This document shows, in pieces, positions 775-43,819 of a stretch of 64,000 nt of DNA. The first letter of the stretch is position 1. Each line of letters starts with the position of its first letter. The translations under genes were made by a program, and so were the position numbers. The notes beneath the pieces are model-generated. The model had not been told where the DNA came from, ran no database searches, and was given only the letters and a program-made list of their open reading frames with translations. Origin of the DNA: Eledone cirrhosa (lineage: Eukaryota). The stretch covers positions 353,338,001 through 353,402,000 of the forward strand of contig OZ024740.1 of the NCBI GenBank assembly GCA_964016885.1, written 5' to 3'.

Positions 775-1602
775 GTGTAGATTAAAAAAATACTGTTTTT
801 TAATTAAAAAAATTCCTTATCTATTTCTCTAAATACAAAAGTCTGTACACTGTCTTCGCAGTCCGTGATAAAAATGTTATGTTAATGTTGTTCTGGCGTT
901 GTATGCCTTTTGCTTGCTTGCACGTGATCAGAACTATTTAGAGTACCAGTCCGATAGAACAAGACAGTGTATATTATGTACCGCCTGGATAATGTTGGTG
1001 AACATGTAGTTATAACAGACGCCTGTTGTGGACTCCTATAATTATCGCATGTACAGCACTCATAAATGCCAAAAAAAAAAAAAAAAAACTTAAATCTGTC
1101 CGCCTCTACTGCATCACCAGTACCAACAGTCTTACTAAAATAGACTGTCACACCCAAGACCAGTGTTACCATTAAGCAAACTACGCAGTTACATGGTGCT
1201 CCTAACAGGCCCCATCAGCCCTGGCGTGAACTTTTATTAAGCTTATCTAAAGGATAAACAATTGATTTATTAACCAGTAGAAAATAATGTAATTTGGCTC
1301 CTATTTGTGCAGTTCTAATTCTAAATCTAATTTTGTGTTAAATACTATGCCATGATAATTGATAGTTAAAAGTCTTTAACTACTCATAAAATGTTAAAAA
1401 TAGCCATTACAAATGCTTCTGGGACTCAAAGAATATCAAATACTGGGTCATAGCACATGACTCAAAGATGTGTGCAGTTGTAAAATGTCCATAAAATACT
1501 CTCTGACTCCAACTTTTGGTCTACAAATGTTCCATCTTCCCTCCGCCTTTTCTACCGTTACTAGTGGTTTTTGCTTCCTTGGGTGGTTGGATTCGTGTCA
1601 CC

Positions 1603-1842
1603 TGTGGGGATGGTGTGGAGGAGGTGACCGGAAGCTGGGGACGATCGACCGGAGGCGGAAAAGGAAGTGACGTGAGATGCGTACCCAGGAGCTTCTGTGG
1701 GCCCTCTTTCGGCTGTGATCCTCGACGAACGGACGTGCGAATGCGAGCTGCAACAGGCGAACGGATTATACCCACGTGAATGAGGCTTGCTCGCTGAGTG
1801 AGCTAGCAGAATTGCGGTAAGTGCAGTAGCTTTCTCGTTACA
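1603..1842 (+). repeat. 5' LTR of copy 1
   Basis: TGTGGGGA...TTACA; direct repeat of 5332-5562. Confidence 0.93.
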
Positions 1843-1854
1843 AGCTATTTCGAC
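1843..1854 (+). promoter_or_regulatory. Putative non-canonical primer-binding site (complement of tRNA-Phe nt 1-12)
   Basis: AGCTATTTCGAC abuts the LTR end; 11/12 match to the reverse complement of GCCGAAATAGCT. Confidence 0.65.
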
Positions 1855-1966: not shown

Positions 1967-4900
1967 ATGGCGACGAGATTACGGATAAACGGAGAAGTAA
2001 TTAGAGCTTTTACCGGTGAAGGTGACGTTGTCGCCTGGATGCGAAAGGTTCGGCTGGTCGCTGAGCTACAAAAGATAGACAATGTAGCGGGCCTCATCGC
2101 ACTCTATCTCGAAGTGAGATGGACGCCCTCAGCCAGAGAGACGCGCAAAATATTGAGCGCCGTATGGTGGAAGCGTTCGCTGAAGGACCGCTTACCGCGT
2201 TTGCTAAGCTGGCAAGGATTTGGTGGAACGGTGAGCGTGTGGATATTTTTGCAGCGGAGATAGGCGATTGGCCATGCTGGCTGGGTTTCAGGTGGAATGC
2301 GAACATGCGGTGCGGTTGGCGTTCATAAACGGATTTCCGGATGACATCGCGGCGAAACTGCAGCAAATACCTGGCTACAAGGAAATGGAGATGCGTGCAC
2401 TGGTAGAGCAAGCCCGCATCATAGCAGAGGATGCCAAGAAGAGTGTTGCAGCAATAGCAGCGACGGAGGCCCGGAGCAGCCGGCAGCGAAATGGCGAAAG
2501 GGATACAAACACGGCGCGCAGTCGCCCGCAAACGTTTAGAGGTCGTTGTTTTAGGTGCCAGGGCGCGCACATGGCGAGAGACTAGAGAGTCAAGGCCAGA
2601 CATAATTTCCAACCGGTGTAAGCGGCCAGACCACATCGCTACCAGTTGCCACCAGGGAAATGGTCTAAGAGGGGCTACTGCGCCGGTAGCTACCCCTCGC
2701 AAGTAGAGGCGCTGTCCGTGGTGAAAGTCTTTGTGAGAGGAAAGCCATTACGAGCCCTCGTGGAAACGGGCTGTATGACGACACTAGTGACCACGGGGGT
2801 GGTGCAGAAGTGGAGAAGGAAGAGTAGCGTAAAGGCAGTCGACGATAGGAAAATTGAATGTTGACGTCGCAGCGTGGTGGAGATGGTGGTACGGAGAAAG
2901 AAAATAAGGCTTTCGGCCATTGTGGTCGACTGCCTGGTGGATGGAATCGGCGTAGTTATGGACATGGACGCGATTGGCCGTTTAGGAGGCGTCACAGTGA
3001 ACAATGACGGTGTGACTTTTGGCGGCGCCGCACCGGTATGCGCTGTGAGTATGCGACAGGAGAACGAGAAGGCTTACACAGTACAGGATAAAGACTTCAA
3101 GGAGACACTAGGAGCGAGTTTGAGCGAGAGGTAGAGAGATGGATCGAGGAGGACATACTGCTTCTCTGGAAAGAAGAGGTGAAGGGTGGGGTACTGCCGT
3201 TAATGGCGGTGGCGCAACCCATGCAGAACAAGGTGAAGCCGGTATTGGACTTTCGGGAGCTGAATGAGCATGTGTCGTGCCACACGGGTGGCGAGGTCAC
3301 GGATGTCTGCGGGGAAACCCTGCATGAGTGCAGACCTATGACGGCGGCTTCCACATCGTCGATTTAAAGTCGGCATATCTACAGCTACACGTGGAGAAGC
3401 TGTGGCAGTATCAGCTGGTCAGGTAAAGGGCCGGACATATTGCCTGACCAGGCTCAACTTCGGGCTGAACTCTGCACCGAAGATCATGGCGGCGGTCCTC
3501 AAGACCATTCTGGGAAAGGCCGACAAGATGAAGAGGGCCACCAATTCCTACATAAACGACATCCTAATGGACGAGACTGTAGTGTCGGCGGCGGAGGTCA
3601 CGAGCCATTTACAAGGGTACGGATTGACTGCGAAGCCGTCGGAGAAGCCGCGCTGGGACTTAGGTCCGAAGAGATAAGACGGGCACGTTAGTGTTTCGGA
3701 GGGGAAATGAAGTCCAGGATCTGGGCCCAAATATGAATAGACGGGAACTCTTCTCGGCGTGTGGAAAATTGGTGGATCACTACCCAATCGCTGGGTGGCT
3801 CCGGCCGGCATGCAGCTATGTCAAGAGACGAACGGACGGGGTGACAAAGTGGGAGAGAGGACGGTGGCCATGATGCAGGGGAATGTGAAGGCAGACGACC
3901 CGGTGCGAGGACGCTGGTATGTCCCCGAATCGCAGAGTGGGACCGTATGGTGTGATGCCAACAGCATAGCGTTAGGTGTCACGCTGGAGATAGGAGGTGC
4001 CGAGGTCGAGGATGCAGCTTGGCTCAGGAAGAAGGATGATTGCAACCACATTAATGTGGCCGAGCTGGACACTGTGTGGAGAGGGGTGAACCTCGCCTTG
4101 AGGTGGGGACTGCGCACCGTTGAGATTCGCACCAACTCGGCCACTATACTCTGATGGGTGACATCAGTGCTTACCGGTTAGAAGAGAGGGGCGACGGAAA
4201 TGCTGATAAAGCGCCGCCTGGGAACTCTAGGAGAGCTGGCCACCGAGTTCGACCTAAACTTGAGTGTGGTCTTCGTGCCCTCAGAGAAAAATAGAGCAGA
4301 CGTTCTAACCGGGGTGAATAAAGCCTGGATGGAAGCGCCGGAGGATGTAGAAGAGGGGATAGCTGCTGTGTGTCGGCTGAGCAAGTCGGAACTTAAAGGG
4401 TTGCATGACATGCACCACATGGGAGTGGATAGGACCCTGTTCCTAGGCAGGAGAATCGACTCCGACGTTAGCAGACACAGTCCCCAGAGAGTGGTCAGAG
4501 GCTGCGTCCGATGACAGTATATCGATCCCGCCCCGGGTGTGCACGAGACGGGAAGTCTCCCGGTGGATCGCAACTGGAAGCGATTGGCGGTGGACTACCG
4601 ACAGGGAACATACCTCTCGATGGTTGACTCTGGACTGGGACGGATGGCGATATGGAGGGAAATGAAGACGGGAACTGCGGAGGAAATCACACGGACGTTG
4701 AGAGAGATATTCTTGGAGCGGGGCCCTGTGGATGAACTGCTGATGGACAACAGCGCAACGTTCCGCCCGGAGGCACTGAGGGAGATGCTTGATGGGTGGA
4801 AGGTGGACCGCTTCTTCAGAGCAGCATAAAGGCCGAGTGGAAATGGAATCGTGGAGCGACACCACCGCACAATCAAAGCAATGGCGGAGCGGAGGCACAT

Positions 4901-5330
4901 CTCACCAATGGAGGCAGTGTTTTGGTACATGTCCCCTCAGGTGGGACAAGCTGAGGAATCGGTGCCACACAGAGCAATATACAGATACGAGTGGCGGCAC
5001 CCGTGCACTGTACCACAACGGCCAGTGGAGAGAGAGAACGCATTCGTACAGGTGGGCGAAGAAGTCTGGGTTAAGCCCCCAGACGCACGTTGCACATCTC
5101 AATGGGGAAGGGAACGGTAACGGCCGTAAATTCCCAGAATAACGTGTCCGTGGACGGAGTGCCACGTTATATTCTGGATGTCCGTAGAGTCGTTGTGTCG
5201 ACGGACTCCGAGGAAGAGGAAATCCAAAGCGCTGCCCCAACATTACGGAGATCGCCGACCGCCTGACTGGACGGCAGATTATCACATGCAGCAGTGTGAG
5301 GGGGAGATTGATCCTTGAGATCATGGGGGC
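1967..5330 (+). pseudogene. Disrupted gag-pol of LTR copy 1
   Basis: Zn knuckle CFRCQGAH, protease RALVETG, RT KVKPVLDFRELN/SYINDIL, RNase H WCDAN..HINVAEL, integrase LHDMHHMG..C and DN..ERHHRTIK, split over many frames. Confidence 0.9.
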
Positions 5331-5331
5331 G

Positions 5332-5562
5332 TCTGGGGATGGTGTGGTGGTGTGGAGGAGGTGACCGGAAGCTGGGGACGATCGACCGGAGGCGGAAGAG
5401 GAAGTGACGTGAGATGCGTACCCAGGAGCATCTGGCGGCCCGCGACGAACGGACGTGCGAATTCGAACTGCAACAGGGGAACGGAGTATACCCACGAGGA
5501 TGAGGCTAGCTCGCTGAGTGAGCTAGCAGAATTGCGGTAAGTGCAGTAGTTTTCTCATTACA
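5332..5562 (+). repeat. 3' LTR of copy 1
   Basis: Direct repeat of 1603-1842, preceded by purine tracts and followed by TSD TCACC. Confidence 0.93.
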
Positions 5563-6362
5563 TCACCTTTATTCAGGCACTTTCCACTAACTTGTCTCCT
5601 CACGTTTCCCATATAAACCTCACTCTCCCATGTATCAACCACTGTGCCTAGACCTTCCTACCCAGAACGTCGGTCCTGCAGAGTCCCTTCTGCGCACATT
5701 TTTTGCATGCAGCTGGTGACTTGCAACTGTTCAAAAGGTTCGTTGACCGCAACCATCTTACCTCTCACGAAGGGCATGAGAAAGCACAGCCATTCGTCGT
5801 GACCAAACTATCACAACTGACGCTGTACAGCATACCTTCAGTATTGAAGATTTGTTAGCAGCCGGTACATTAATCAGGGAAATAGTGATCCAAGGGACAG
5901 CATATGGGTATCTGATCCCTCCCCCCATCCTCAATAGCAATCTCTCATTCCCATTGAACTTTAAGAGGAGCTTCCCTCCTTTCGTGACCTGAAAGCAGCA
6001 TTGTTCCGCTTTATAACATTTCTCGCTATCATTATCAAAACAATTGCCGGTTCTACAGCAATGACAGAAATATACCAATGAAGAGATTTATGTCTGGTTG
6101 CTGAGATTGGAAAGGAATGGCATAATGGATAATGAAGACTCAAATATACAAAAAGACGGGATGACCACGACTGAAAAGCCTTTTACTATTGGTGTGGAGT
6201 TGCCGGAAGTTGTGAATCGCCTTATCGGAAGCGAAAATCGAGTGACGTTACATCAGGGTTCGGGGACTAGTCATTGGTTTTTTTACGTCAGGTCATGGCC
6301 CAGTGTGGACGTGTTTACAAAAGCGAGCGAGAGAGATTTTCTCATCCTCAGTCGGACGTAAG

Positions 6363-6649: not shown

Positions 6650-7778
6650 TAAACACAAATAACGAAACGAAATTAAATTTAGTTTCGTTTGTAACTCACT
6701 TTTGTATGACTGACGCTTAAACAATTAAGTTAGAAGTGTACATCCACATATGTATACTGAAATACTAGTATGCATATAAATACAGACACGTATACATATG
6801 TAGATCTACCGAGTTTTTCACTGGACACTTTACTGTGAGTGTTCAGCTAGTCTGTATGTAAACACACAGACAAACCGGTTTTTAGAGTCATACTGGTTTT
6901 CGAGGAAACACCTTTCCTCTATTCTCCAGAGGGCCAGACAGGAATATTGGACTAGTTTCGATGTTGTTACATCTCATCAGCAATATATACCCATCCTCCG
7001 GCCCCTCTAGAGAATCGTAAAAGCACATATCGTTATATGCTTTTTCTATGAAAATTAGTAGTGGGCATACGTGTGTGTATTTATATGCATACTAGTATTT
7101 CAGTATACATATGTGGATGTACACTTCTAACTTAATTGTTTAAGCGTCAGTCATATAAAAGTGAGTTACAAACGAAACGAAATTTAATTTCGTTTCGTTA
7201 TTTGTTTTTATCGCTTCCGCTGAACCGGTACGTACTCACGCTCTATGCAAATTAGTCTGCCCACTACTAATTTTCATAGAAAAAGCATATAACGATATGT
7301 GCTTTTACGATTCTCTAGAGGGGCCGGAGGATGGGTATATATTGCTGATGAGATGTAACAACATCGAAACTAGTCCAATATTCCTGTCTGGCCCTCTGGA
7401 GAATAGAGGAAAGGTGTTTCCTCGAAAACCAGTATGACTCTAAAAACCGGTTTGTCTGTGTGTTTACATACAGACTAGCTGAACACTCACAGTAAAGTGT
7501 CCAGTGAAAAACTCGGTACATCTACATATGTATACGTGTGTGTATTTATATGCATACTAGTATTTCAGTATACATATGTGGATGTACACTTCTAACTTAA
7601 TTATATGTATACTATTATATTTTCATGGTAAATGCTTTATCTCACATAATATCGAATCTATGAGATTTTGAAACTATTTATTTTGAGAACAATACCTTAA
7701 CATCAGTTTGAGTGACCAGTTACAGCCAGTTTCAACAGAAAAAGGTAGAGAATTCTGGCCGGTTTGAACTGTAAAGGG
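6555..7778. mobile_element. piggyBac-like MITE carrying a ~1 kb rearranged insert in its (TA)n tract
   Basis: TTAA|CCCTTTAG ... GTAAAGGG|TTAA; an uninterrupted 220-bp copy lies at 28171-28390. Confidence 0.8.
6651..7602. repeat. Compound inverted duplication (A-B-A'-X-B'-A' partial)
   Basis: 7068-7209 is the reverse complement of 6651-6792; 7258-7602 is the reverse complement of 6723-7067. Confidence 0.9.
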
Positions 7779-10232: not shown

Positions 10233-10486
10233 TGTGGGTATGGTGTGGTGTGCGGTGGCCGGAAGCTGGGGAGTGCTTGACCGGAAGGGTGCTTGACCGG
10301 AAGGGTGCTCGACCGGAAGGGCCAGCAGATCGGTCTCTCTCTAGTGGTGATCAGGAACGGTGTGGACGCGAGTTTGGCAGCTCCCGGGTGTTAATGAGTT
10401 AGACGCACGTGGAAGAGGAGAAACCAGCCATGGGATTTAGCAGCGCCTATGTAAAGCGGTAAGTGAGATAGCTTTTTCTAACCACA
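10233..10486 (+). repeat. 5' LTR of copy 2
   Basis: TGTGGGTA...ACCACA; contains tandem GTGCTTGACCGGAAGG units. Confidence 0.93.
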
Positions 10487-10498
10487 AGCTATTTCGGC
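10487..10498 (+). promoter_or_regulatory. Putative non-canonical primer-binding site (complement of tRNA-Phe nt 1-12)
   Basis: AGCTATTTCGGC, 12/12 reverse complement of GCCGAAATAGCT, directly after the LTR. Confidence 0.7.
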
Positions 10499-10625
10499 AC
10501 TGGAAACTGAGATCTGATTGAGAAAAAAATAAAAAAACTTTCTCGAAAACAAAGCTACTGGAAAAACAGAGAGGAGGCTGTTGTTTTTTTTATTTTTTAT
10601 TACGTATCGCTAGACAAATTAGGAT

Positions 10626-13600
10626 ATGGCGACGATACTACGAACGAGCTAAGCAATTAGGGCATTTACCGGTGAAGGCGATGTTGTCACTTGGCTGCGA
10701 AAAGTCCGGCTGGTCGCAAGCTTATTGGGGACGCGTTGGTACTCTTCCTTGAGTTGGATGAACACAGCCAAAGGGATGCGCAAAAGATTGAGAGGCGCAT
10801 GATGGAAGCGTTCGCGGAGGGACCGTTAGCCGCTTTTGCTAAGCTGGCAAGAATTAGATGGAACGGTGAACGCGTTGACATTTTCGCAGCGGAAATACGG
10901 CGATTGGCCATGTTGGCTGGATATCAGGTGGAATGCGAACGCACGGTGCGGTTGGCGTTCATAAATGAATTTCCAGACGACATAGCGGTGAAACTGCAGC
11001 AAGTTCCGGGTTACAAAGAAATGGAGATACATCCACTGGTGGAGCAAGCCCGCATCATAGCAGAAGATGCCTAGAAGAGTGTCGCGGCGATAGCAACTAC
11101 AGAGGCTCAAGACAGCCGGCAGCGAAATGGTGAAAGGGAGGCAACCACGGCACGCGGTCGCCCGCGAACGTTTAGAGGTCGTTGTTTTAGGTGCCAGGGC
11201 CCGCACATGGCGAGAGACTGTAGAGTCAAGGCCGGAAATAATATGCTACCGGTGTAAGCGACCAGGCCACATCGCTACTAACTGCGACCAGGGAAACGAT
11301 CCAAGGGGAACTACTGCGCCGGTAGTTGCCCCTTACGAGTAGAGGCGCTGCCCGTGGTGGAAGTCTTCGTGAGGGGAAAGCCACAGCGAGCCCTCGTGGA
11401 CACGGGCTGTACGACGGCGGGGGTGGCGCAGAGGTGGAGAGGGAAGAGCAGCATAAGGGCAGTCAACGGTAGGAAAATTGAATGCCGAGGTCGCAGTGAG
11501 TTGGAGATGGCGGTATGGGGAAGGAAAATAAGGCTTTCTGCCATCGTAGTCGACAACGTGGTGGATGGGATCGGCGTGGTTATGGGCATGGACGCAATTG
11601 GCCGTCTAGGAGGCGTCACATTGAACAACGTCGGTGTGTCGTTTGGCGGCGCTGCATCGGTATGCACTGTGAGTACGCGACAGGAGAAGCAGAAGGCCCA
11701 CGAGGAGAAATACCCCGCTTACATTGTGCAGGACAAAGACTTCAAGGCCGTGTTCGATGGGTTGCTATCAACACACATTGAAGGGAGACATTAGGAGCGA
11801 GAGGTAGAGAGATGGATTGAGGAGGTGAAGTGCGGAGTATTGTCGTTAATGGCGGTGGCGCAACCCACGAAGAACAAGGTGAGGCCGGTACTGGACTTTC
11901 GGGAGCTGAACGAGCACGTGTCATGCCACACGGGTGGTGAGGTCACGGATGTCTATGGGGAAACCCTGCGTGAGTGGAGACGCATGACGGGGGGTTCCGC
12001 AATCGTAGATCTAAAGTCGGCATACTTACAATTGCATATAGATGAGAAGCTCTGGCAGTATTAGCTGGTATAAGGGCCGGACATATTGCCTGACCAGGCT
12101 CGGTTTCGGGCTGAGCTCCGCACCGAAGATCATGGCGGCGGTCCTCAAGACCATTCTGGGAAAGGCCGACAAGATGAAGAGGGCCACTAATTCCTACATT
12201 GACGACATCCTAGTGGACGAGTCTGTAGTGTCGGCGGCGGAGGTCACGAGCCATTTACAGCGGTATGGACTGGCTGCGTAGCCGTCAGAAGCGTTGGAGG
12301 GAGGAGCCGCGCTGGGACTTAGGCTACGGCGAGACAGGACGGGCGTCTTCATATTCCAGAGGGGAAATGAAGTTCCAGAACTGGGCCCAAGTATGAGTAG
12401 GCGGGAGCTTTTCTCGGTGTGTGGAAAGTTGGTAGGTCACTACCCGATTGCTGGGTGGCTCCGGACGGCATGCAGCTATGTCAAGAGACGAGCGGGAAGC
12501 GTGACTTGGAGTGACAGAGAGGACGGTGGCCATGATGCAGGAGATCGTGGAGAGGGTGAAGGCCGACGACCCAGTGCGGGGACGCTGGTATGTTCCCAAA
12601 TCGCAGAGCGGGACCGTATGGTGCGATGCCAGCAGCATAGCGCTGGGTGTCACGTTGGAGATAGGAGGTGTTGAGGTCGAGGATGCAGCCTGGCTTAGGA
12701 AGAAGGACGACTGCAACCATATCAATGTGGCCGAACTGGACGCGGTGTTGAGAGGGGTGAACCTCGCCCTGAGGTGGGGACTGCGCACCATCGAGATATG
12801 CACCGACTCGGCTACTGTACTCGGATGGGTGATATCAGTGCTCACCAGTGAGAAGAGAGTGCGAACGAGAGGGGCGGCGGAGATGCTGATAAAGCGCCGC
12901 CTGGGAACTTTAGGAGAGCTGGCCACCAAGTTCGACCTGATGCTGAGCGTAGTTTTCGTGACCCCAGAGAAAAATAGGGCGGACGTCTTAACCAGGGTGA
13001 AGAAAGCCTGGATGGAAGCGCCGGAGGATGTAGAAAAGGAGATAGCTGCCGTGTGTCGGCTGACCGAGTCGGATCTGAAAGGGTTGCATGACATGCACCA
13101 CATGGGAGTGGATAGGACCCTGTTCCTAGCCAGGAGAATCGATTCAGACGTTAACAGACACAGTGTTCAAAGGGTGGTTAGAGGCTGCGTCCGATGTCAG
13201 TCCATTGATCCTGCCCCGGGTGTGCACGAAACGGGATGCCTCCCGGTGGATCGCGATTGGCGGTGGATGTAACGCACTACCGACAGGGAACGTACTTCTC
13301 GATGGTTGACTGTGAACCAGGACGGATGGCGATATGGAGGGAGATGAAGACTGGAACGGCCGAGGAAATCATGCGGACGTTGAGAGAGGTGTTCTTGGAG
13401 CGGGGCCCTGTGGACGAACTGCTGATGGACAATAGCGCAGCGTTCCGCTCGGAGGCGCTGAGGGAGATGCTCGATGGATGGAAGGTGGACCGTTTCTTCA
13501 GAGCAGCGTACAGGCCGAGCGGAAATAGAATTGTGGAGCGACACCACCGGACGATCAAGGCAATGGCGGAGCGGGGCCACATCTCACCAATGGAGGCAGT

Positions 13601-14034
13601 GTTCTGGTACAACATGTCCCCTCGGGTGGGACAGGTTGAGGAATCGGTGCCACACAGAGCAGTATTCAGATACGAGTGGCGGTACCCGTGCACGCCACCA
13701 CAACGGCCAGTGGGGAGAGAGAATGCATTCGTGCAGGTGGTTCGATGAAGTCTGGGTTAAACCCCCAGATGCACGTTGCACATCTCAATGGGGAAGGGGA
13801 ACGGTGGCGGCCGTAAATTCCCAGAACAATGTGTCCGTGGACGGAGTACCACGTCATGTCCTGGATGTCCGTAGAATTACTGTGTCAACAGACTCCGAGG
13901 AAGAGGAAACCCAAAGTGCCGCCCCAACACTGCGGAGATCGCAAAGAAGTCGCAAACCACCAACCTGGACAGCAGACTTTCATATGCATAAGGACGAGGG
14001 GGAAATTGATCCTTCAGATCATGGGGGCGTGTAG
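10626..14034 (+). pseudogene. Disrupted gag-pol of LTR copy 2
   Basis: CYRCKRPGHIATNC knuckle; RALVDTG protease; SYIDDIL RT; WCDAS/HINVAELD/TDS/NRAD RNase H; HHCC plus DDE integrase. Confidence 0.92.
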
Positions 14035-14251
14035 GTATGGTGTGGTGTGCGGTGGCCGGAAGCTGGGGAGTGCTTGACCGGAAGGGTGCTCGACCGGAAG
14101 GGCCAGCAGATCGGTCTCTCTCTAATCAGGAACGGTGTGGACGCGAGTTTGGCAGCTCCCGGGTGGTAATGAGTTGGACGTGGAAGAGGAGAAACCAGCG
14201 ATGGGATTTAGCGGCGCCTATGAAAAGCGGTAAGTGAGATAGCTTTTTCTA
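14030..14251 (+). repeat. 3' LTR of copy 2 (terminal ACCACA lost)
   Basis: Direct repeat of 10233-10480. Confidence 0.9.
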
Positions 14252-14547: not shown

Positions 14548-15504
14548 ACTAGACATGAAAAATGCGCAAGCTCAAAAGTGCCACAGAATGTTATAATAAA
14601 CCTTCAAAAGTGTGGGACTAGAGTTGTTGCTAAAAAATATTGTAATCATTATATATCGTACATTCTGTGGCATCCTTTATAAAAATAGCTTAAACCAACG
14701 AAGCCTTTATTTTTACGCTATTTCACTTAGTTAATTCTTAGAGTGTAACATATAAAAATATGATTTACAACTATAAAATAAATTAATTAATATAATAACA
14801 GAGCTGCGGAGCTGAAATTTAGGAAATAATGGAGTATCGGATCCTGAGTTGGAGCCAGTCAATTTTTGGCCGACTCCGCAGCCCTGTATAATACATTTCA
14901 TATTAAAGTTATTAATAAACCTATTTTACACTGCATGCAAATTACCATGAGATATTGATATTAGATATAAGATACAGCGCAATATCTACAGCTGTAAAAG
15001 TACGAAAGCGAAGTAATAATAAGTGGCTTAAGGTAATTCCAATATGAAAGTTTGTAGTGATAAAAATTTGATAATGCAATACGATTGTTAATATTATAGT
15101 TCTATGAAAATGTAACAATAGATAACTAAATTATTTTACTATTAGTATATTTAAGAAATTATCATTATAGATTTGATCGTTCATATAAGCATCATATTAA
15201 TTTTCAACACAATTATTTTGTTACTATGAGTATATGATAATAATATTACGTAATTATTTATAGCTGTTATTACATTAAACATAGATGTATTTATTTTTAT
15301 ATGTTACACTCTAAGAATTAACTAAGTGAAATAGCGTAAAAATAAAGGCTTCGTTGGTTTAAGCTATTTTTATAAAGGATGCCACAGAATGTACGATATA
15401 TAATGATTACAATATTTTTTAGCAACAACTCTAGTCCCACACTTTTGAAGGTTTATTATAACATTCTGTGGCACTTTTGAGCTTGCGCATTTTTCATGTC
15501 TAGT
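14548..15504. repeat. 213-bp inverted repeat pair with ~530-bp spacer
   Basis: 14548-14760 is the reverse complement of 15292-15504, no mismatches seen by eye. Confidence 0.92.
14799..14886. mobile_element. Small hAT MITE
   Basis: TIRs CAGAGCTGCGGAG / CTCCGCAGCCCTG; 8-bp TSD TATAATAA/TATAATAC. Confidence 0.75.
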
Positions 15505-20812: not shown

Positions 20813-21556
20813 GGCGTTCCTTACTTTTAGCGGTGTCAAGAATGAAAGTAAATTTATTTTCATTTTCGAACGTCGTGTTTACATTTTGTGTGTGTGTGTG
20901 TTTAAACGAAACATGCTGGCGACGAAGCTTCTTCTTTGCACGGCTCCATGTGTTCTCTATGAGCTGTGTGTGCACATCAGGGTCCGCAGGATCTACAAAG
21001 TTCCGTTCGTGCACCACAACATCATGAACGTAAATCCCACCTTCAATTTCCGAATAGGAAGCCCAACCATCTTGTAATGAGGCTTGCAGAATGGTGAGTC
21101 CATTATTGTCGAGATAGACGAATCCAAATGCTTCTATAGAAAGTATCATCATGGCCTGTAGAGACAAGGCCACTGGGTCTTCGGCGCTGTTGAACGCCAT
21201 TCTGGACGCTGCTGCCTTGTAGAAGTCCCAAATCGAAGCCGTGACACTCTCGTCCCCCTCATTCAGCAGTGGATTTTGCCAGACAGCCGCATCATCTCCG
21301 ATGGTTGGGCTTCCTATTCGGAAATTGAAGGTGGGATTTACGTTCATGATGTTGTGGTGCACGAACGGAACTTTGTAGATCCTGCGGACCCTGATGTGAA
21401 CACACAGCTCATAGAGAACACATGGAACCGTGCAAAGAAGAAGCTTCGTCGCCAGCATGTTTCGTTTAAACACACACACACAAAATGTAAACACGACGTT
21501 CGAAAATGAAAATAAATTTACTTTCATTCTTGACACCGCTAAAAGTAAGGAACGCC
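20813..21556. repeat. ~258-bp inverted duplication of the Merlin fragment 3' part
   Basis: 20813-21071 is the reverse complement of 21300-21556 with a few substitutions and one CA-unit difference. Confidence 0.9.
21084..21460 (+). mobile_element. Merlin (ISXO2/IS1595-like) DDE transposase fragment
   Basis: IVEIDES..RKYH.G..WVFGAVER..DTLVPLIQQWILPDSRIISDGWASY..V.H..NFVDP...NTQLIENTW; one in-frame stop. Confidence 0.88.
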
Positions 21557-25595: not shown

Positions 25596-26030
25596 CATTG
25601 TTATAGTATCATGGTCGATTTGATGACGTGTTTCATGGCTGATGAACTTATTTTATGTTCCGCAATGTTGCCTTCACTGTTCAGTTTATTTAACATTTGT
25701 TCCAGTTCATGAACATCATTTGCAAGCAAAGCGTACATTCCCCATTTTTGCTTATTCCTTTTTCATCCCAATTTAGCTTTGTAAAATGCAATATCAAAAA
25801 GTTTGGGTGATGTTATATCCCACTTGACTTATCGATGATGTACCCTGGCAATAGATTTTCTAAATAATTTGTATAGAGGTTTCTTGTATACTCAGATGAG
25901 CTTCAAGTACAGTTTAAATTTCAATGCTATCGAGGGATTTCACATAATCTCTAAAGCCTAAACACTAAATTTGTTTATATTCTGTATAATCCTGAATAGT
26001 TTGGTTCACTGTATAAATGGTCAGTTGTTG

Positions 26031-27300
26031 AAAACTTACTTCTGAACCCTTCCTGTTTCCTTGGATGATAAAACTTACTTCTGAACACTTCCTGTTCCTT
26101 TGGTTCACAAAACTTAATTCTGAACCGTCCCTGTTCCCTTGGTTGATAAAACTTACTTCTGAACCCGTCTTTGTTCCCTGGTTGATAAAACTTACTTCTG
26201 AACACTTCCTGTTCCTTCGATGATAATACTTACTTCTGAGCCCTTCTTTGTTCTCTGGTTAATAAAATTTGTGTCTGAGCCCTACTTGTTCCCTTGGATT
26301 CAAAAAACTTGTATCTAAATCCTTTTTGTTTCCTTGGTTACCAAAAACCTTGCTTTTGAACCCTTCCTGTTTGCTTGGTTCATAACATTTTTATCTGAAC
26401 CTGTCTTAAACCCTTGTTTTATAAAACTTACTTCTGAACCCTCTTGTTCCCTTGGTTGATAAAACTTACTTCTGAACACTTCCTGTTCCCTTGGATGATA
26501 AAACTTACTTCTGAACCCTTCCTGTTCCCTTGGTTGATAAAACTTACTTCTGAACCCGTCTTTGTTCCCTGGTTGATAAAACTTACTTCTGAACACTTCC
26601 TGTTCCTTCGATGATAATACTTACTTCTGAGCCCTTCTTTGTTCTCTGGTTAATAAAATTTGTGTCTGAGCCCTACTTGTTCCCTTGGATTCAAAAAACT
26701 TGTATCTAAATCCTTTTTGTTTCCTTGGTTACCAAAAACCTTGCTTTTGAACCCTTCCTGTTTGCTTGGTTCATAAAATTTTTATCTGAACCTGTCTTAA
26801 ACCCTTGTTTTATAAAACTTACTTCTGAACCCTCTTGTTCCCTTGGTTGATAAAACTTACTTCTGAACACTTCCTGTTCCCTTGGATGATAAAACTTACT
26901 TCTGAACCCTTCCTGTTCCCTTGGTTGATAAAACTTACTTCTGAACACTTCCTGTTCCCTGGTTGATAAAACTTACTTCTGAACACTTCCTGTTCCCTTG
27001 GTTGATAAAACTTACTTCTGAATCCTTGTTCCCTGGTTGATAAAACTTGTGTCTGAGCCCTTCTTGTTCCCTTTGGTATTAAAAACTTGTATCTAAATCC
27101 TTTTTGTTTCCTTGGTTACCAAAAACCATGCTTTTGAACCCTTCTTGTTTGCTTGGTTGATAACATTTTTTATCTGATCTTATCTTGAACCTTTGTTTTA
27201 TAAAACTTACTTCTGAACCCTTCCTTTTCCTTTGGTTGATAAAACTTGCTTCTGAGCCCTTTCTATTTCCTTTATTAATAGAACTTCTGAGCTCTTCTTG
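26031..27300. repeat. 39-bp minisatellite with ~390-bp higher-order repeat
   Basis: Unit AAAACTTACTTCTGAACCCTTCCTGTTCCCTTGGTTGAT; variant monomer GTATCTAAATCC recurs at about 26311, 26702 and 27089. Confidence 0.92.
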
Positions 27301-28170
27301 GGATTTGGTTAATGAGGAAAGGTTAAGGCATTATTGATGTTATTTGCAAGTACTTCAGTAAATAGTTTGAACAAAAACAGCTGGCTGATTGGTTTGTAGC
27401 TTGTAACATCTATAGTGTTATTTTCTTGTCTCAAAGTATGATGCTGGCATTGTCCCATATGCTGGGGATTTCATTTGATTTTATGCATTTTATGATGATT
27501 AACCTATCCTAAATTAAAATCAGAATGTAAAAAAAACAAACATTGCTAAGCTATTTAATTGAAAACTAATATACATTGATTGACTACTGAGGAACAAAAT
27601 GTCAAGTTGATTCTGATAGGATTTTAACTCAATGTAAAGTTACAGAACTATGTATTGCCCTCCTGTCTCTTTTACTGTGACTATAACAGCTTCTCATTTC
27701 TTAAACTATGATGGGGAATTGCCTGAACACTTAAAACGTTAAAAAGAAAAAGGATGTTATAGTATTTGTTATGGCTCTTTACATTCAGAGCTCAAATCCT
27801 GGTGAGGTCAACTTTTAAAATAAAGTACTAAGTCTAGAGTAGTGGATTTGCAGAATTGTTAAAACACTAGACAAAATGTCTTGTATCATTTGTTCTCACT
27901 TTTTATATTCTGAGTTTGAATTATGCTGAAATCTCTTTTGCTTTTTGTACTTCTGGGAGTTCAATAAGATATAGTATCAGTTAAAATACTGAAATGTAGA
28001 ACTCTCTAATACAAACATACATTGCTTCTATGAAATCAAGGAAAAGGGGCAGCAAAATATAGCTGAAGCTACCTTTCCTTGCAGCTAGCAAAAGATGCAA
28101 GACTCTGAAAGTGGTTGTACAACTAGCAAGTTAAAGTATAAGGAAGCTCCTCATAGTAAAATAACTTTAA

Positions 28171-31242: not shown

Positions 31243-31535
31243 TTGAAATCCAAACAGGAAAAAACTGTAACAACAGTTGATCGCTATAAATAATAATGGC
31301 TTTATAAAATTGGGCATAGTACCCTTAAGGATTGAAAAATGTAGCCAGCAGCCAGCAGCCTGTACATATAAATCAACATATCTTTAGTCTAGTTGGTAAA
31401 TAGACAACAGAACTTTCAGCAGTCATGAAGAAAGTGTGTATCAACTAATTGATTGGTTTTGGCATTTGTTAAAGGCTTCAATTACTTTCCTCTCAAGGCT
31501 GCATAAACAGTGCTAATTTATGAATAATATAAGCA

Positions 31536-32360: not shown

Positions 32361-32458
32361 ATAAGCATGATCAGATTAGATTTAACCTTATTTATGTATG
32401 TTATAAAATGTTGATGAGATCATTAGAGAAATCTCAAACTAATCAATTAACTAACTCC

Positions 32459-36129: not shown

Positions 36130-38910
36130 GTAGATATATATATATATAATTCTTTGAATCTTCATCCCTGCCGAAGGGACGTTTGAGAAATGTAATTGTA
36201 TTTACGCCATTTTCTTGTCTCTCTCTATGTTTTACACGGTCCATTTACTTAGACTCCAAGCTTTCAATTTTATTCGTTAATTCTGTCAGACCCTCAAAAA
36301 CACTCTTCTTGTATTTAAACTCTGATTACTGTTATAGGTTTAGATTAAAAAAATAACCTTCTAGTTAACTTCCCCATATTCCCCCTCCCCCACTCGCCAC
36401 CATTATTAGATGGTCCAATCATAATTCAGCGGCTTATACATCTCTCTTACCAATCTCTTACACAAAACCACCGCCTTGATTATTCACTCCTTAAGTTTAA
36501 ACCTGGTTGCCTTTGATATGCTAGATGGACTGTGGGATTCTGGAGAGTAAGAAGAATCTGGACACTCAAATGACAATGTCAAAGATAAAGGTAAATTCAC
36601 CTCATGTGGCTGGCCGAAAATGCAAGGATTCCTCTTTATTTCAGACGCGGATGGCAAACATAACCCCATCTCCCTCACCCCGCCATACATCTCCAACCCA
36701 TCCTTTCCACCCATCAAACAAAATCTAAAACTTCAGAGTTGGTACCATGAATGTAGGCACTTTAAAAGGTGGCTCTAACGAGGTTGAACGTAAGGAAGTT
36801 GATGCTTGTTGTGTCCAAGAGACTAGGTGGAGGGATGGGTCTGCTAGATTCATTGTGGGTAAAAAACGATGCTATAAACCTTTCTGGGTGGGAAATGAAA
36901 ATGGGCTGGGTGGGGTAGGAATTATGTTAGCAGAAAAATAGGTAGATAAGGTAATTGACGTAAATAGAGTGAACGACAGAATATTCAAAATAAGATTTGT
37001 CCTAAATAGAACTACTGTGACAATAATATCCGCTTATACACCCCAATCTGGACTGCCTGGCGTTATAAAAGACAGATTCTATGAGTTGCTAATGCTCACT
37101 TCCTCCCAACTAACCGACAGTGACTACATAATTATTGCTGGCAACCTAAATGGTCATGTTGGACAACATTGTGACAGCTATGACAGAATCAATGGAGGCT
37201 ACAGGGTTGGTACCAGAAATGAGGAAGGCTCCAGAATTCTGGAATTCTGTGACGCAAATAACCTAACTATCTGCAAGACAAACTTCAAAAAACGAGGCAA
37301 TCACTTGATCACCTACAAATCAGGGGAACACGCCAATCAGATAGATTATATCCTTACCAGAAGATGTGACAAAGTGTTGGTTGTAAACACTAAATGCCTG
37401 CCCCGCGGAGAATGTACCTCCCAACATAGACTCATAGTTAGTGACCTCATAGTCAGGATGAGACGTACTCGACAACAGAGGAGGGCCACCCTGAGAAGAA
37501 GAATATGGAAGTTAAAGGACCCCACAGCCAGTAACAAATTTAAAAGCATACTACTTGATGCTTTTGACAGTAAAGAAGAGCAATTAGAGACGTACAGTAT
37601 AGAGGAACAGTAGGAATTCCTGAAAGTTAACCTGCTGAAGGCGACAGATGATATCTGTGGCTGGAGCAGACCTCTAGGCAGGAGGAGAGTAACATGGTGG
37701 TGGAAGAGTCAGTCAAGGCCAAAAAGCAAGCTTGGAAAGTATGGCGGGATGGGGGAAGTAGAGAACACTATCAAGTGGCCAGGAGGGAAGCTAGGAGACA
37801 AGTGTACTTTGCAAGAAGGGAAGCAGAGGAAAGAAAGTTCAAGCATGTTCTACAACGCGAGAACCAAAAATGTGAGGTGTTCAGGATTGCTCGACAGTGT
37901 GTCAAGGAAAACTGTGATATTGTCGGGGAGAAGTGTGTCTGTAATGATGATAGTATACTTGCCATCACTGATACTGATAAGAAGGTAGCTTGGAAGTGTC
38001 ACTACGAGAGGCTACTAAATGAGGAGAATAAGTGGGAAAAAGATAGTCTGCCCCAAATCGATCCAATAGAGGGACCAGCAGTGCAAGTTAAAGGTAGTAT
38101 AATAAGTAAGGCAATCAAAGATATGAAGACAGGCAAAGCAGCTGGGCCTTCGGAGATAGTTACTGAAATGCTGAAAGCATCTGGATCGGTGGGACACACT
38201 ATGGTCTCCCGAATAGTAAACCAAGTCATACAGAATGGGGTCATACCAAATGACTGGCGTAACAGCATCATCATTAACTGCTACAAGGGTAAAGGAGATG
38301 CCCTAGATAGGGGAAACTATAGAGGCATTAAATTAATTGACCAGGTCATGAAGGTCACAGAAAAAGTTATAGCGCAACTAATCAGAGAGCGAATTGATCT
38401 AGATGAAATGCAGTTCGGGTTTGTGTCAGGTAAAAGTACCACAGACGCTCTTTTCCTTGTACGACAACTACAGAAGTACCTAGCTAAAAGTAAACCCCTA
38501 TAATTAGCTTTTGTTGACTTGGAGAAAGCCTTTGACAGAGTCCTCCGCTCCATTATCTGGTGGGCTCTTAGAAAACTAGGTGTTGATGAATGGCTTGTGA
38601 GAGCTATATAAGCCATGTATAAAGAAACAGTCAGTAAGGTTAGAATTAACAACGAATATAGTGAAGAATTTAGCGTAAAAGTCGGTGTTCATCAGGGCTC
38701 TGTCCTTAGCCCCCTCCTATTTATTATTGCCCTACAGGCTATGACAGAGGAGTTTAAGACCGGCTGCCCATGGGAACTCCTATACGCAGATGATCTAACT
38801 CTCATAGCTGAATCAATGGCTGAACTAGAGAAGATATTCCAAACTTGGAAGCACGGGCTAGAATCAAAAGGCCTTAAAATTAACTTGTCTAAGACTAAAG
38901 TTCTAGTTTG

Positions 38911-39213
38911 TGTGGGGCTATGTGGAGGAGGTGACGTCAGATGTGGACGCTTGACCGGAGAAGGAGTGAGGCGATGTGTGTTTCCGAGGTGGCGTCCGTA
39001 GGCTGCATCTATGCGTTTCCAAGGCGTCGTCCGTAGGCTGCGTCTAGGCGTTTCCAAGGCGTCGTCCGTAGGGCATCTCTAGCGGTGACTTGGAGAAAGA
39101 CAGACGTATCTAACTAAGCTGCAGCTTGGCGAATTGATTGTAACCCGAAGATCGAAGCACGGCTGTGAGTGAACCAGCAGACTCGCGGTAAGTGGAATAG
39201 CTTTCTCACCACA
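38911..39213 (+). repeat. 5' LTR of copy 3
   Basis: TGTGGGG...CCACA; three 35-bp internal units versus one in the 3' LTR. Confidence 0.92.
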
Positions 39214-39225
39214 AGCTATTTCGGC
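39214..39225 (+). promoter_or_regulatory. Putative non-canonical primer-binding site (complement of tRNA-Phe nt 1-12)
   Basis: AGCTATTTCGGC, 12/12, directly after the LTR. Confidence 0.7.
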
Positions 39226-39312
39226 ACATGAAGACGTACAATTGGAAAAAAGAAGAGACAAAGCTATTTTAAAACAAAGATTATCTTGTTTTATCACCGC
39301 AGGACTAAAGAG

Positions 39313-42256
39313 ATGGCGACGAGATTATGGTTGAGCAGTGAAGTACTTAAAGCTTTCACCGGTGAAGGAGACGTTATTGCTTAGATGCGAAAGGTCTGGG
39401 TGGTCGCCGAGCTACAAAAGATAGACGATGTGGCCGGTCTCATGGCGCTATATCTCGAGGGGGGTGCACTAGCATTGTACCTCGAGATGGACGAAATCTG
39501 CCAGAGGGACGTGCAAAAAAATTGAATGGCGTATGATGGAAGCGTTTGCGGAAGGTCCGTGTACCGCGTTTGCCAAGCTGGCAAGGATAAGGTGGGAAGG
39601 TCAGCGTGTGGTTATTTTTGCTGCGGAGATAAGGAGATTGGCCATGCTGGCTGGGTTTCAAGTCGAGTGCGAGTGTGCAGTGTGGCTGGCATTTATAAAC
39701 GGATTTCCGGATGATATCGCGGTGAGACTGCAGCAAATACCTAGCTACAAGGAAATGGAGATGCGTACATTGGTAGAGCAAGCCCGCATCATAGCGGAAG
39801 ATGCTAAGAAGAGTGTTGCAGTGATGAAAACCCGGGGCAGCCGACAGCGAAATGCCGAAAGGGCAACAAACACAGCGAATAATCGTCGTTGTTATAGGTG
39901 ACACGGTGCGCACCAGACCTAATTTGCTACTGCTGTAGGCGGCCGGGCCACATCGCTACCAACTGCGACCAGGGAAACGGTCCAAGGGGAGTTATTGCGC
40001 CGGTAGCTATCCCTTGAGTGTAGAGGCGCTGCCTGTGGTGAAAGTCTTGGTGAAGGGAAAGCCATTACGAGCCCTCGTGAACACGGGATGTACAACGACA
40101 ATGGTAACCATGGGGGTGGTGGAAAAGTGGAGAGGAAAGAGCATCATAAGGGCAGTCGACGGCAGGAAGATTGAAGGTAGAGGTCGCAGCAAGTTGGAGA
40201 TGGTGGTAAGGGGAAAGAGAATTAGGCTTTCAGCCATTGTGGTCGACTGCGTAGTGGATGGGATTGACGTGGTTATGGGCATGGACGCGATTGGCTGATT
40301 AGGAGGCGTCACAGTGAATGATGGCGGAGTAACATTTGGTGGCGCTGCATCAGCATGCGCTGTGAGTACGCCTCAGGAGGGCGAGAAGGCCCATGAGGAA
40401 AAATATGCCGCTCACACTGTACAGGATAAGAACTTCAAGGCCGTGTTCGACGGGCAACGATGGATTGTTGAGTGGTACTGGAAGGGAGAACCGCCAACAT
40501 AGAAGAACAAAGTGGGTTGTTATCAGCACACACTGAAAGGAGATACTAGGAGAGAGTTTGAGCGAGAGGTAGAGAGATGGATCGAGGAGGGCATACTGGT
40601 TCTCTGGAAGGAGGAGGTGAAGTGTGGGGTGATGCTGTTAATGGCTGTGGTGCAACCCACGAAGAACAAGGTGAGACCAGTGTTGGATTTTCAGGAGCTG
40701 AACGAGCATGTGTCGTGTCACACTGGTGGTGAGGTCACGGTTGTCTGCGGGGGAAACTCTGCGGGAGTGGAGACGTATGACGGAGGCTTCCACGATCGTC
40801 GACTTAAAGTCGGCATATCTACAGCTACACATGGAGGAGAAGCTGTGGCAGTATCAGCTTGTCAGGTATAAGGGCCGGACATATTGCCTGACCAGGCTCG
40901 GTTTCGGGCTGAACTCTGCATCGAAGATCTTGGCGGCAGTCCTCAAGACCGTTCTGGGAAAGGCTGACAAGATGAAGAGGGCCACCAATTCCTACATTGA
41001 CGACATCTTAGTGGACGAGACTATAGTGTCGGCGGCGGAGGATACGGATTGACTGCGAAGCAGTCAGAGGTGTTGGAGGGAGGAGCCGCACTAGGACTTA
41101 GGCTGTGAAAAGACAAGACGGGCACGTTAGTATTTCGGAGGGGAAATGAAGTCCCAACTGTACTCGGATGGGTGAGGTCAGTGCTTACTAGTGAGAAGAG
41201 AGTGCGAACGAGAGGGGCGGCAGAAATGCTGATAAAGCACCGCCTGGGAACTCGAGGAGAGCTGGCTACCGAGTTTGGCTTGAAGTTGAGTGTAGTCTTC
41301 GTGCCCTCAGAGAAAAATAGAGCAGACGTCTTAACCAGGGTGAAGAAAGCCTGGATGGAAGCGCCGGAGGATGCAGAAGAGGGGATAGCCGCTGTGTGTT
41401 GGCTAAGCGAGTTGGACCTTAAAGGGTTGCAATGCCATGCACCACATGGTAGTGGATAGGACCCTGTTCCTAGCCAGGTAAATCGATTCCGACGTTCGCA
41501 GAGAGAGTGGTCAGAGGCTGCGTCCGATGCCAGTCTATCGATCCCGCTCCGGGTGTGCACGAGACAGGAAGTCTCCCGGTGGATCGCGACTGGAAACGAT
41601 TGGCGGTGGACGTAATGCACTACCGACAGTGAACATACCTCTCGATGGTTGATCGGGATGGATGGCGATATGGAGGGAAATGAAGATGGGAACTGCAGAG
41701 GAAATCACGCGGACGTTGAGAGAGATATTTTTGGAGCGGGGCCCTGTGGATGAACTGTTGAGGGAAATGCTTGATGGATGGAAGGTGGACCGCTTCTTCA
41801 GAGCAGCATACAGGCCGAACGGAAATGGGATCGTGGAGCGACACCACCGCACAATCAAAGCAATGGCAGAACGGGGGCACATCTCACCAATGGAGGCAGT
41901 GTTTTGGTACAACATGTCCCCTCAGGTGGGACAGGGTGAGGAATCGGTGCCACACAGAGCGATATACAAATTCGAGTGGCGGCACCCGTGCATGGTACCA
42001 CAACGGCCAGTAGAGAGAGAGTGCATTCGTACAGGTGGGCGAGGAAGTCTGGGTTAAGCCCCCAGACACACGCTGCACATCTCAATGGGGAAAGGGAATG
42101 GTAACGGCTATGAATTCCCAGAATAACGTGTGCGTAGACGGAGTGCCACGTCATGTCCAGGACGTCTGTAGAATCGTTGTGTTGATGCCCCAACATTACG
42201 GAGATTGTGACGGGATCGCCGACTGCCTGGGTGGATGGCAGATTGTCACATTGTGA
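39313..42256 (+). pseudogene. Disrupted gag-pol of LTR copy 3
   Basis: Same gag, PR, RT (SYIDDIL) and IN (NGIVERHHRTIK) motifs; most of RNase H deleted. Confidence 0.88.
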
Positions 42257-42288
42257 GGGGGAGATTGATCCTTGGGATCAGGGGGGAG

Positions 42289-42522
42289 TGTGGGGATATG
42301 TGGAGGAGGTGACGTCAGATGTGAAACGCTTGACCGGAGGAGGAGTGAGGCAAGATGCGTTTCCAAGGCGGCGTCCGTAGGGCATCTCTAGTGGTGACTT
42401 GGAGAAAGATGGACGTACCTGACTAAGCTGCAGCTTGGCGAATTGATTGTAACCTGAAGATCGAAGCACGGCTGTGAATGAACCAACAGACTCGCGGTAA
42501 GTGGAATAGCTTTCTCACCACA
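42289..42522 (+). repeat. 3' LTR of copy 3
   Basis: Preceded by purine tract AGGGGGGAG; followed by TSD GTATG. Confidence 0.92.
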
Positions 42523-43819
42523 GTATGTAGGAAGGAAAATAGGGCACTGGTCCCATCTGGGAAATGGCCATGCTCAGTGTGTAGGAAAGAAGTAGGCAGA
42601 AACTCCATTTTATGTCCCAAATGCAAAGTATGGGTGCATAAAAGATGTAGTGGGATCACAGGTAAGCTAACTAAGAATATAGATTTTATATGTGGCCGGT
42701 GCTCAGGTGCAATAAGTAATAGCAAGTGCCCACAGGATACTAGCTCCTTCCATTGTCCAGATGGCTCTATAGAAATAGTGGACACCTTCCGTTACCTGGG
42801 TGACAAAATCAGCAGTGGTGGAGGGTGCTCTGAAAGTACAGTAGCTAGAGTCAATGGGATGGAAAAAGTTCAGAGAGCTTATACCACTATTGGCCGCTAA
42901 AGGTTTCTCCCTAAAAATGAAAGGCAGACTGTATGATGCCTGCATACGAACAGCAATGTTACATGGCAGTGAGACATGGGCATTGTGTGCAGATGATCTG
43001 CGCTGACTGGAGAGGAACGAAGCGTGCATGCTCCATTGGATGTGTAACAGTAATATACGTGAACGGCAAAGCATAAATGAACTAAGTGAGAAATTAGTAA
43101 TAAGAGGGATCAGATACTGTTTACTCGAAAGAAGACTATGTTGGTATGGTCACGTGATGCGCATGAAAGACGACAACTGTATAAAAAAAGTGCAGGGCGA
43201 TCAAAATAGATGGAAGCTACGGAGTAGGCAGACCCAGAAGAACCTGGGACGATTTGATAAATTCCGACCTTACACACTTACACCTCTCTAAGACAATGTC
43301 ATTGGACCGAGATCTCTGGCGTTACGCAGTAATACAGAAGACCCGCCTTGCCTAAGTACAAAGCGAAACCTACAGTCAGTAGGCATCTCCTAACCTAAAA
43401 TACACACCCATCTCACTACCCCTACCCCACCCCATCTACACCACCCCTTTCTCTGTAAAGTTATGTTGGTGCCACAACATCCAGTCCTAAATAAATGAGG
43501 TCGTGTAGGTGTCACAACAAAAAAAAACACAGTCCACGCTGTAATGTGGCCGTGTAGGTAACACGGTAAAAACCTCCCAGTCCACACTGTAATCGTGGTT
43601 GGTGTTAGGAAAGGCATCCAGCCGTAGAAAACCTACCAGACAGTCCTATGCGAGCAAGGCAACCAATCTTGCCTCACGTGGGACAATTCACGTCTAAACC
43701 CATGCTAGCGTGGAAGATAGACGTTAAACGATGATGATGATATATATATTATTGTTATTGGATTTATTTTTATTGCGTGTCATCTTTGTATTACCAAGTA
43801 CAGCTCTGTGAACTTTGGG

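Follow-up and report, generated by a model that had tools for sequence, protein, structure and literature searches.

A site complementary to the first 12 bases of tRNAs abuts the 5′ LTR in a lineage of animal LTR retrotransposons and is a candidate primer-binding site

Three related LTR elements in Eledone cirrhosa

We analyzed a 64,000-nt stretch of the Eledone cirrhosa genome (contig OZ024740.1, positions 353,338,001 to 353,402,000, forward strand), referred to below as the window. Self-BLAST and end alignment identified three related LTR elements with paired LTRs in the window, all on the + strand. Their features are as follows.

1598..1602, + strand: 5-bp target-site duplication of element 1, found again at 5563-5567 (by sequence; 5/5 letters alike)
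1603..1842, + strand: 5′ LTR of element 1, TG..CA (self-BLAST, end alignment)
1843..1854, + strand: 12-nt site of element 1, complement of tRNA-Phe bases 1-12 with one mismatch
1967..5324, + strand: broken gag-pol of element 1 (stops, frameshifts), with DUF7047 and RNase H-like RVT_3 matches
5325..5331, + strand: short G-rich tract ahead of the 3′ LTR of element 1, by its position a likely polypurine tract
5332..5562, + strand: 3′ LTR of element 1
10233..10486, + strand: 5′ LTR of element 2
10466..10477, + strand: U5 stretch of element 2, for which folding predicts pairing either to the site or to another AAAGCTAC motif in the leader (host family only)
10487..10498, + strand: 12-nt site of element 2, directly adjoining the LTR; exact reverse complement of bases 1-12 of host tRNA-Phe(GAA)
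10626..14022, + strand: broken gag-pol of element 2, with zinc knuckle, DUF7047, RVT_3, and integrase H2C2 and core
14023..14029, + strand: G-rich tract of element 2, likely polypurine tract
14030..14251, + strand: 3′ LTR of element 2, truncated at its 3′ end
38906..38910, + strand: 5-bp target-site duplication of element 3 (4/5 letters again at 42523-42527), within a LINE-like RT frame
38911..39213, + strand: 5′ LTR of element 3
39214..39225, + strand: 12-nt site of element 3, exact
39313..42279, + strand: broken, internally deleted gag-pol of element 3, with protease and with RT carrying YIDD at 40726-41028
42280..42288, + strand: polypurine tract of element 3
42289..42522, + strand: 3′ LTR of element 3

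Within each element the two LTRs were similar (207/222, 215/221 and 220/233 identical positions for the three elements). Between elements, LTR identity was 73-77% of aligned columns with many gaps, in agreement with the original prediction, made from the window alone, that the LTRs of the three copies are quite different. The interiors, read with X at stops, had the domain order zinc knuckle, protease, RT (YIDD), DUF7047, RNase H-like and integrase, all broken by stops or frameshifts; two gag knuckles were present in the window frames.

Element 3 was inserted into a LINE-like RT frame that carries YADD (38700-38910 and 42523 onward), and related LINE pieces occurred at 31533, 42924, 52588 and 37715/63132. 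Other repeats in the window included tandem arrays at 32405-33344 and 25985-27325, with units of 32 and 39 bp, and near-perfect, MITE-like long inverted repeats at 6723-7602, 14548-15504 and 20886-21485, with arms of 348, 213 and 186 nt (98-100%).

A 12-nt site at the 5′ LTR edge matches the start of host tRNA-Phe

The sequence AGCTATTTCGGC was present in the window in two exact copies (10487-10498 and 39214-39225) and one copy with a single mismatch (1843-1854), all on the + strand. Since the 5′ LTRs end at 1842, 10486 and 39213, each terminating in ACA, the 12-mer is indeed flush with the 5′ LTR end in all three copies, with no TGG behind any of these LTRs, as had been claimed.

The tRNA-Phe start on which the original prediction relied, that of human and Drosophila, proved correct for this host: tRNA-Phe(GAA) genes called by ARAGORN open with the reverse complement of the site. 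Likewise, pairing ends at the LTR edge, because tRNA base 13 is C and needs G, and the terminal LTR base is A; tRNA bases 13-15 would require CTG, and the LTR offers ACA. The computed duplex energy with tRNA bases 1-12 was -20.7 kcal/mol, or -13.8 kcal/mol for the mismatched copy, and that with the last 18 tRNA bases including CCA was -7.3 to -12.8 kcal/mol.

Occurrence in the host genome

In the 3.0-Gb host genome, the exact 12-mer occurred 853 times, compared with 24 for the reversed control. Among the first 30 genome matches, 25 were LTR ends of several subfamilies, four were neither LTR ends nor tRNA genes, and one was a tRNA gene, identified by ARAGORN as tRNA-Phe(GAA) with the matched stretch at its bases 1-12. 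A 15-mer representing the LTR context (ACA plus the site) had 514 matches (control, 1), and a 15-mer representing the tRNA context had 247 (control, 0). Thirty tRNA-context loci were retrieved; tRNA-Phe was called in eight of the nine analyzed with ARAGORN, and most Phe genes of the retrieved loci had the same 12 starting bases. An Rfam tRNA search of the host genome gave 16 matches, with no tRNA-Phe among them.

We asked whether these counts could reflect a conserved cis element that resembles a tRNA end by coincidence. The site is short, and when up to two mismatches are allowed it is found three times in the window against a shuffle mean of 3.34, so this loose count by itself is not above chance. 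However, the two exact copies in the window (about 0.008 expected), the placement at LTR ends and the genome-wide excess over control are far above chance. In addition, the probability of hitting any of about 60 tRNA starts exactly is near 4e-6, and the likeness recurs with different tRNA starts (see below). Coincidence is thus largely refuted, and we assign it almost no weight.

Conservation of the site within the host family was assessed in 18 of 150 listed RT matches, which were picked by hand with long open frames favored. The site was present in 16/18 of these RT-picked copies (14 exact, two with one mismatch), 1.5-1.6 kb upstream of RT, which bears out family-wide conservation; the other two had neither the site nor a visible LTR pair. 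In 13 of the 16 site-bearing copies the 3′ LTR end could be located, with unrelated DNA beyond it, and this fixes the site as flush with the LTR.

Two variant site patterns found in relatives (described below) were also searched for in the host genome. With the Lys-type pattern there were 80 matches against 57 in the control; the clustered ones were tRNA-Lys genes, and the first 30 included no recognizable LTR end. The CVCG pattern gave 61 matches against 82, with no tRNA and no LTR end among the first 30.

These searches also revealed the organization of several host tRNA genes. Large tandem arrays of tRNA-Phe and tRNA-Asn in units of about 1.26 kb were located on host C4 at about 117.36-117.54 Mb and beyond (L051-L076), and many copies in them were slightly mutated. 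Matches to the tRNA-Lys(CUU) start clustered on C4 at 79.56-79.62 and 128.67-128.74 Mb, with genes confirmed at 79.56-79.62 Mb. Ten scattered tRNA-like genes (L003, L005-L013) had one body with anticodons shifting among Ala, Val, Thr and Asp, and are likely heads of a tRNA-derived SINE.

Site variation among distant relatives

Protein searches yielded 525, 527 and 784 relatives, most of them without a name; those with one came from Argonauta, Aplysia, crustaceans, Nymphon, Trichuris and Hydra. An alignment of 46 relatives was used to retrieve metagenome loci by Pol alone, giving 59 loci with 42-61% Pol identity to the query, and the same 46-row alignment found no relative among viral contigs. 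In 33/59 metagenome loci, a site starting with AGCTA directly followed CA (TA in one). These were all the loci that hold an LTR-gag junction, so that the site recurred clade-wide in 33/33; a gag start with upstream DNA was absent from all of the other 26, which therefore offer no counter-example. No TGG-type site was detected in the 33 junctions or in the host copies.

Twelve of the 33 sites were exact, six had CGCG, five CACG and four CCCG in place of TTCG, and six were single types, with variation mainly at tRNA positions 3-7. A profile of 30 distinct sites showed that tRNA positions 8-12 were invariant, that position 5 was nearly free (0.14 bits) and that position 1 was kept in 29/30. In tRNA 5′ ends, U8 is invariant and the acceptor stem is variable. 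The column profile of the site appears to follow this variation, a likeness that is partly circular in that resemblance to the 12-mer, or CA+AGCTA, was how the sites were recognized. Conservation ended at tRNA base 1, the next base carrying only 0.22 bits. The letters 3′ of base 12 of the site thus vary freely, which does not sustain the proposal of tRNA 3′-end mimicry by the element (TTTCGGCAC); the TTTCGGC of the element is an automatic consequence of acceptor-stem complementarity.

Several variant sites corresponded to other tRNA starts. The site of locus L155 was the exact complement of bases 1-12 of tRNA-Lys(CUU) of Eledone cirrhosa, a match to this host and not to the host of L155 itself. 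The CGCG type corresponded to the start of tRNA-Phe(GAA) genes in 9/47 loci, and the L149 site to that of one tRNA-Met and one tRNA-Thr gene, in each case with tRNAs of organisms other than the elements' own hosts. The L171 site resembles what we take to be the start of animal tRNA-Lys(UUU). Among the loci compared, no tRNA gene matched the CACG and CCCG types, and three sites (L132, L158 and L174) fitted tRNA starts more poorly.

The clade tree was a quick tree of 46 rows with SH-aLRT values only and no bootstrap, from which duplicates (L138, L139 and L152) and the deleted L182 were omitted. In this tree, host copies adjoined Argonauta proteins with weak support (82). Phe-exact sites appeared in several branches, and a CGCG element was sister to a Phe-exact one (96), implying site switches. 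What the sequences of these elements show is the site itself, its position, its match to tRNA, that it is conserved and that it changes from one tRNA 5′ end to another; it is a feature wider than tRNA-Phe and wider than the host family.

One CCCG element was found in at least 20 public runs, 16 of them recorded as RNA, in which contigs indicate its presence only and not its transcription or start. In 4/4 runs examined, contigs diverged from the element at the base immediately preceding the site, which confirms the flush edge of this variant; other contigs crossed the junction without changed letters.

Two further observations concern the metagenome loci. The L137 element, from jellyfish-labeled libraries, grouped tightly with sea-spider proteins (support 100), which may reflect either its host or a transfer. 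A contig of a bacterial-labeled metagenome bin (L249-L251, L253, L254, L261 and L262) had a tRNA-Phe gene every 3,738 bp and looks like eukaryotic contamination.

Could such a site bind tRNA for another purpose, such as packaging, dimerization, translation control or silencing, with priming achieved otherwise? Primer sites acting as tRNA-pairing platforms for silencing are mentioned in part of the text of PMC13537249, and the start codon of gag is frequently only a few bases away from the site. However, the site sits exactly where a primer site belongs, with no TGG-type alternative beside it, and minus-strand DNA must begin at the site edge because the LTR has to be rebuilt. We regard a purpose other than priming as very improbable.

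Classification of the lineage

The elements were LTR retrotransposons of the Ortervirales type: LTRs were paired and bounded by TG..CA, the target duplication fell within 4-6 bp, and the domain set comprised gag knuckle, protease, RT, RNase H and a DDE integrase with catalytic residues. The order PR-RT-RH-IN is that of Ty3/Gypsy (Metaviridae). All 46 aligned Pol proteins matched DUF7047 and RVT_3, and none of the 46 matched the Gypsy-type RT_RNaseH models PF17917 or PF17919; comparison of RT with 12 host Gypsy-type frames gave at most 4.2 bits.

BEL/Pao (Belpaoviridae) was rejected, as no match to the Peptidase_A17-type model PF05380 was found in the 46 Pol proteins and the window frames had two knuckles, not three; BEL references gave one weak match in the host genome. 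Ty1/Copia (Pseudoviridae) was rejected because integrase lies after RNase H and not before RT. Troyka/Kuafuorterviridae was excluded by termini, duplication length and RT motif, although, like the present group, it is an LTR lineage that branches deeply, occurs in aquatic animals, and has short LTRs and an identical order of domains. The parts of PMC12440569 and PMC11673190 that describe Troyka give CG..CG ends, 3-bp duplications, xADD in RT, a CX2CX8-10HX4C knuckle and a size of mostly 5-6 kb, in contrast to TG..CA, 5 bp, YIDD, CX2CX4HX4C and about 4.2 kb in the present group. Primers are not mentioned in the available portion of PMC12440569 (Troyka/Kuafu).

The predicted Pol fold (mean pLDDT 78) resembled the RT-RNase H of retroviruses and caulimoviruses at 10-20% identity, with CaMV RT as the best structural fit (rmsd 4.9). 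Identity of Pol to solved or viral structures did not exceed 20%, sequence matches in PDB were weak (integrase and RT), and the top two Atlas clusters consisted of unnamed DUF7047 proteins.

Self-complementarity and leader folding

Priming from the element's own RNA, either of the Tf1 type or from a U5 hairpin, would make the tRNA match secondary, and the flush geometry of the site is Tf1-like. To look for a self-complement, we scanned the whole upstream LTR for the complement of the site, as opposed to a mapped transcript start; 36 sites were listed and one with only four upstream bases was dropped, leaving 35. The best upstream complement had 8-11/12 pairs counting G-U and at most nine Watson-Crick pairs, and exceeded 95% of shuffles in 1/35 sites only. 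With no conserved complement in these LTRs, Tf1-type self-priming was rejected. Thus, neither a match to a tRNA 3′ end nor a conserved self-complement, either of which would have spoken against the original prediction, accounts for the site.

In the host family, folding predicted that 8-9 bases of U5 can pair with the site in a local hairpin, a pairing predicted to compete with tRNA. Although this would suit a U5 hairpin, self-complementarity would not keep the site tied to tRNA 5′ ends across unrelated LTRs, and we consider both forms of self-priming very improbable. An alternative predicted pairing of U5 with the second AAAGCTAC motif downstream frees the site at a cost of 2-11 kcal/mol, and the two pairings may form an open/closed switch.

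Host-family leaders (10456-10630 in the window; also 1812-1970 and 39183-39316) keep a splice-donor-like U5 motif, GCGGTAAGT. A stretch complementary to GCGGTAAGT lies just upstream of gag, and the long stem predicted from the two encloses the primer site.

Proposed priming mechanism

The sole conserved complement at the edge where minus-strand synthesis starts is the first 12 bases of a tRNA, and we consider it quite probable, judging from sequence, that tRNA bases 1-12 are the minus-strand primer. In the proposed chain of events, element RNA would invade the acceptor stem and the first half of the D-stem of the tRNA. The RNase H of the element would then cut at the end of the duplex, in the manner of Tf1, whose RNase H cuts its own RNA between bases 11 and 12 according to the available part of PMC7175516. 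This would create a 3′-OH at tRNA U12, presumably required because tRNA bases 13-15 cannot pair with the LTR-terminal ACA, and extension into U5 by RT would give cDNA ending at the LTR CA with no spacer. Copying of the short primer during plus-strand synthesis could also rewrite the site, which would explain both its sharp edge at base 1 and the site switches.

That a 12-nt fragment actually primes, and which enzyme releases it, we infer. The catalytic D/E/D/D residues of RNase H were kept in 45-46 of 46 relatives, as is expected for any active element, and cleavage of RNA paired to RNA by this RNase H is suggested by analogy with Tf1 only. For the whole chain, in which a 12-base 5′ piece of tRNA primes after the element's RNase H has cut it free from the duplex, we see the chances as evenly balanced.

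The same primer might instead be a 12-nt 5′ fragment made beforehand by a host nuclease, through a cut in the D-stem or trimming of a longer 5′ fragment, and then only picked up by the element. Everything that the sequences say about the site would fit equally, the acceptor stem need not open, and host-made tRNA primer fragments have a precedent: capture of a half tRNA made by RNase P has been proposed for copia, and Kikuchi is said to have reported such a primer fragment in 1990. However, the 12/13 edge shared by Phe, Lys and other tRNAs in distant hosts would be set more simply by the end of the duplex at the LTR. Moreover, the classes of 5′ tRNA fragments described in the relevant part of PMC7599909 are 14-16, 22-24 and 28-30 nt, so that a 12-mer is not a species described there. 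A fragment made by the host is possible but, in our view, rather unlikely.

Another way to dispense with a nuclease would be for the intact tRNA to pair by bases 1-12 and prime uncut, for example from the 2′-OH of U12. Retron RTs do prime from an internal 2′-OH, and the RT found here is very divergent, with at most 20% identity to any match. However, its predicted structure is the fold of an ordinary RT-RNase H, and to our knowledge branch priming does not occur among LTR elements or retroviruses. Uncut priming is accordingly very unlikely, slightly more so than use of the site for a purpose other than priming.

Relation to known priming systems

Known LTR-element primers are few, namely the tRNA CCA end, a tRNA half and the element's own 5′ end. 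If the clade-wide site complementary to tRNA bases 1-12 is a primer site, it would add a mode uniting tRNA-fragment priming and self-priming. We view the site as a real clade-wide feature, and its use as likely a variant of tRNA-fragment priming with Tf1-like geometry. More tentatively, and with somewhat less than even confidence, we propose an unnamed deep LTR lineage, possibly its own superfamily, distributed among molluscs, crustaceans, sea spiders, cnidarians and nematodes, whose members take hold of an intact elongator tRNA through bases 1-12 and use their own RNase H to cleave it between bases 12 and 13. Such a mode would amount to Tf1 chemistry in trans and would link self-priming with tRNA priming. 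This would bear on how tRNA priming relates to hairpin or self-priming, a question raised in part of PMC3601003. It also predicts that tRNA is cleaved by an RNase H and yields a fragment of 12 nt, shorter than any described size class, and such elements would be beyond the reach of 3′ tRNA fragments and exposed to 5′ ones.

No description of priming at tRNA bases 1-12 was found in the open-access literature; the search lay outside Repbase reports and subscription papers, and there is a small but appreciable chance that the site was noted earlier in one of these. Such priming is not described in the available main-text parts, supplements aside, of PMC7472051, PMC3601003, PMC8220671, PMC6238403, PMC13537249 and PMC13524379. 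As far as its available text goes, PMC13524379 tests only 12 bases at tRNA 3′ ends, and surveys of this kind would miss such elements.

The closest geometry is that of the Tf1/sushi group (Schizosaccharomyces pombe Tf1, and Tj1), in which the primer is the first 11-12 bases of the RNA, paired beside the LTR, with a cut needed at the duplex end (parts of PMC7175516 and PMC4600332). Unlike in that group, the complement here lies in a host tRNA and not in the LTR of the element, and Pol has no Gypsy-type RT_RNaseH Pfam matches.

Drosophila copia and yeast Ty5 are similar in that the primer is a 5′ tRNA fragment and not the CCA end. In both, integrase precedes RT and the primer is a stretch of about 39-40 nt from initiator tRNA-Met that pairs near the anticodon stem. 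In the present elements, integrase follows RNase H and the site pairs with bases 1-12 of elongator tRNAs such as tRNA-Phe or Lys, and not with the anticodon-stem region of initiator tRNA-Met, which speaks against half-tRNA priming of the copia/Ty5 type.

Retroviruses, Ty3/Gypsy and BEL/Pao, which prime from the 3′-CCA end, share with these elements a tRNA-complementary site at the 5′ LTR edge, TG..CA termini, a 5-bp duplication and the order PR-RT-RH-IN. Nevertheless, the site described here has no TGG start and no spacer and pairs with the opposite end of the tRNA, without pairing to the CCA end, and canonical 3′-end priming was therefore rejected. In control Gypsy-type elements of the same genome whose LTR edge was readable, TGG came a few bases downstream of it. 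One such host family (L314-L319, L324 and L325) had long open frames, and about 8 bases separated its LTR CA from a site starting with TGG; a Y/F-x-D-D motif was not found in 8/12 frames of this Gypsy type.
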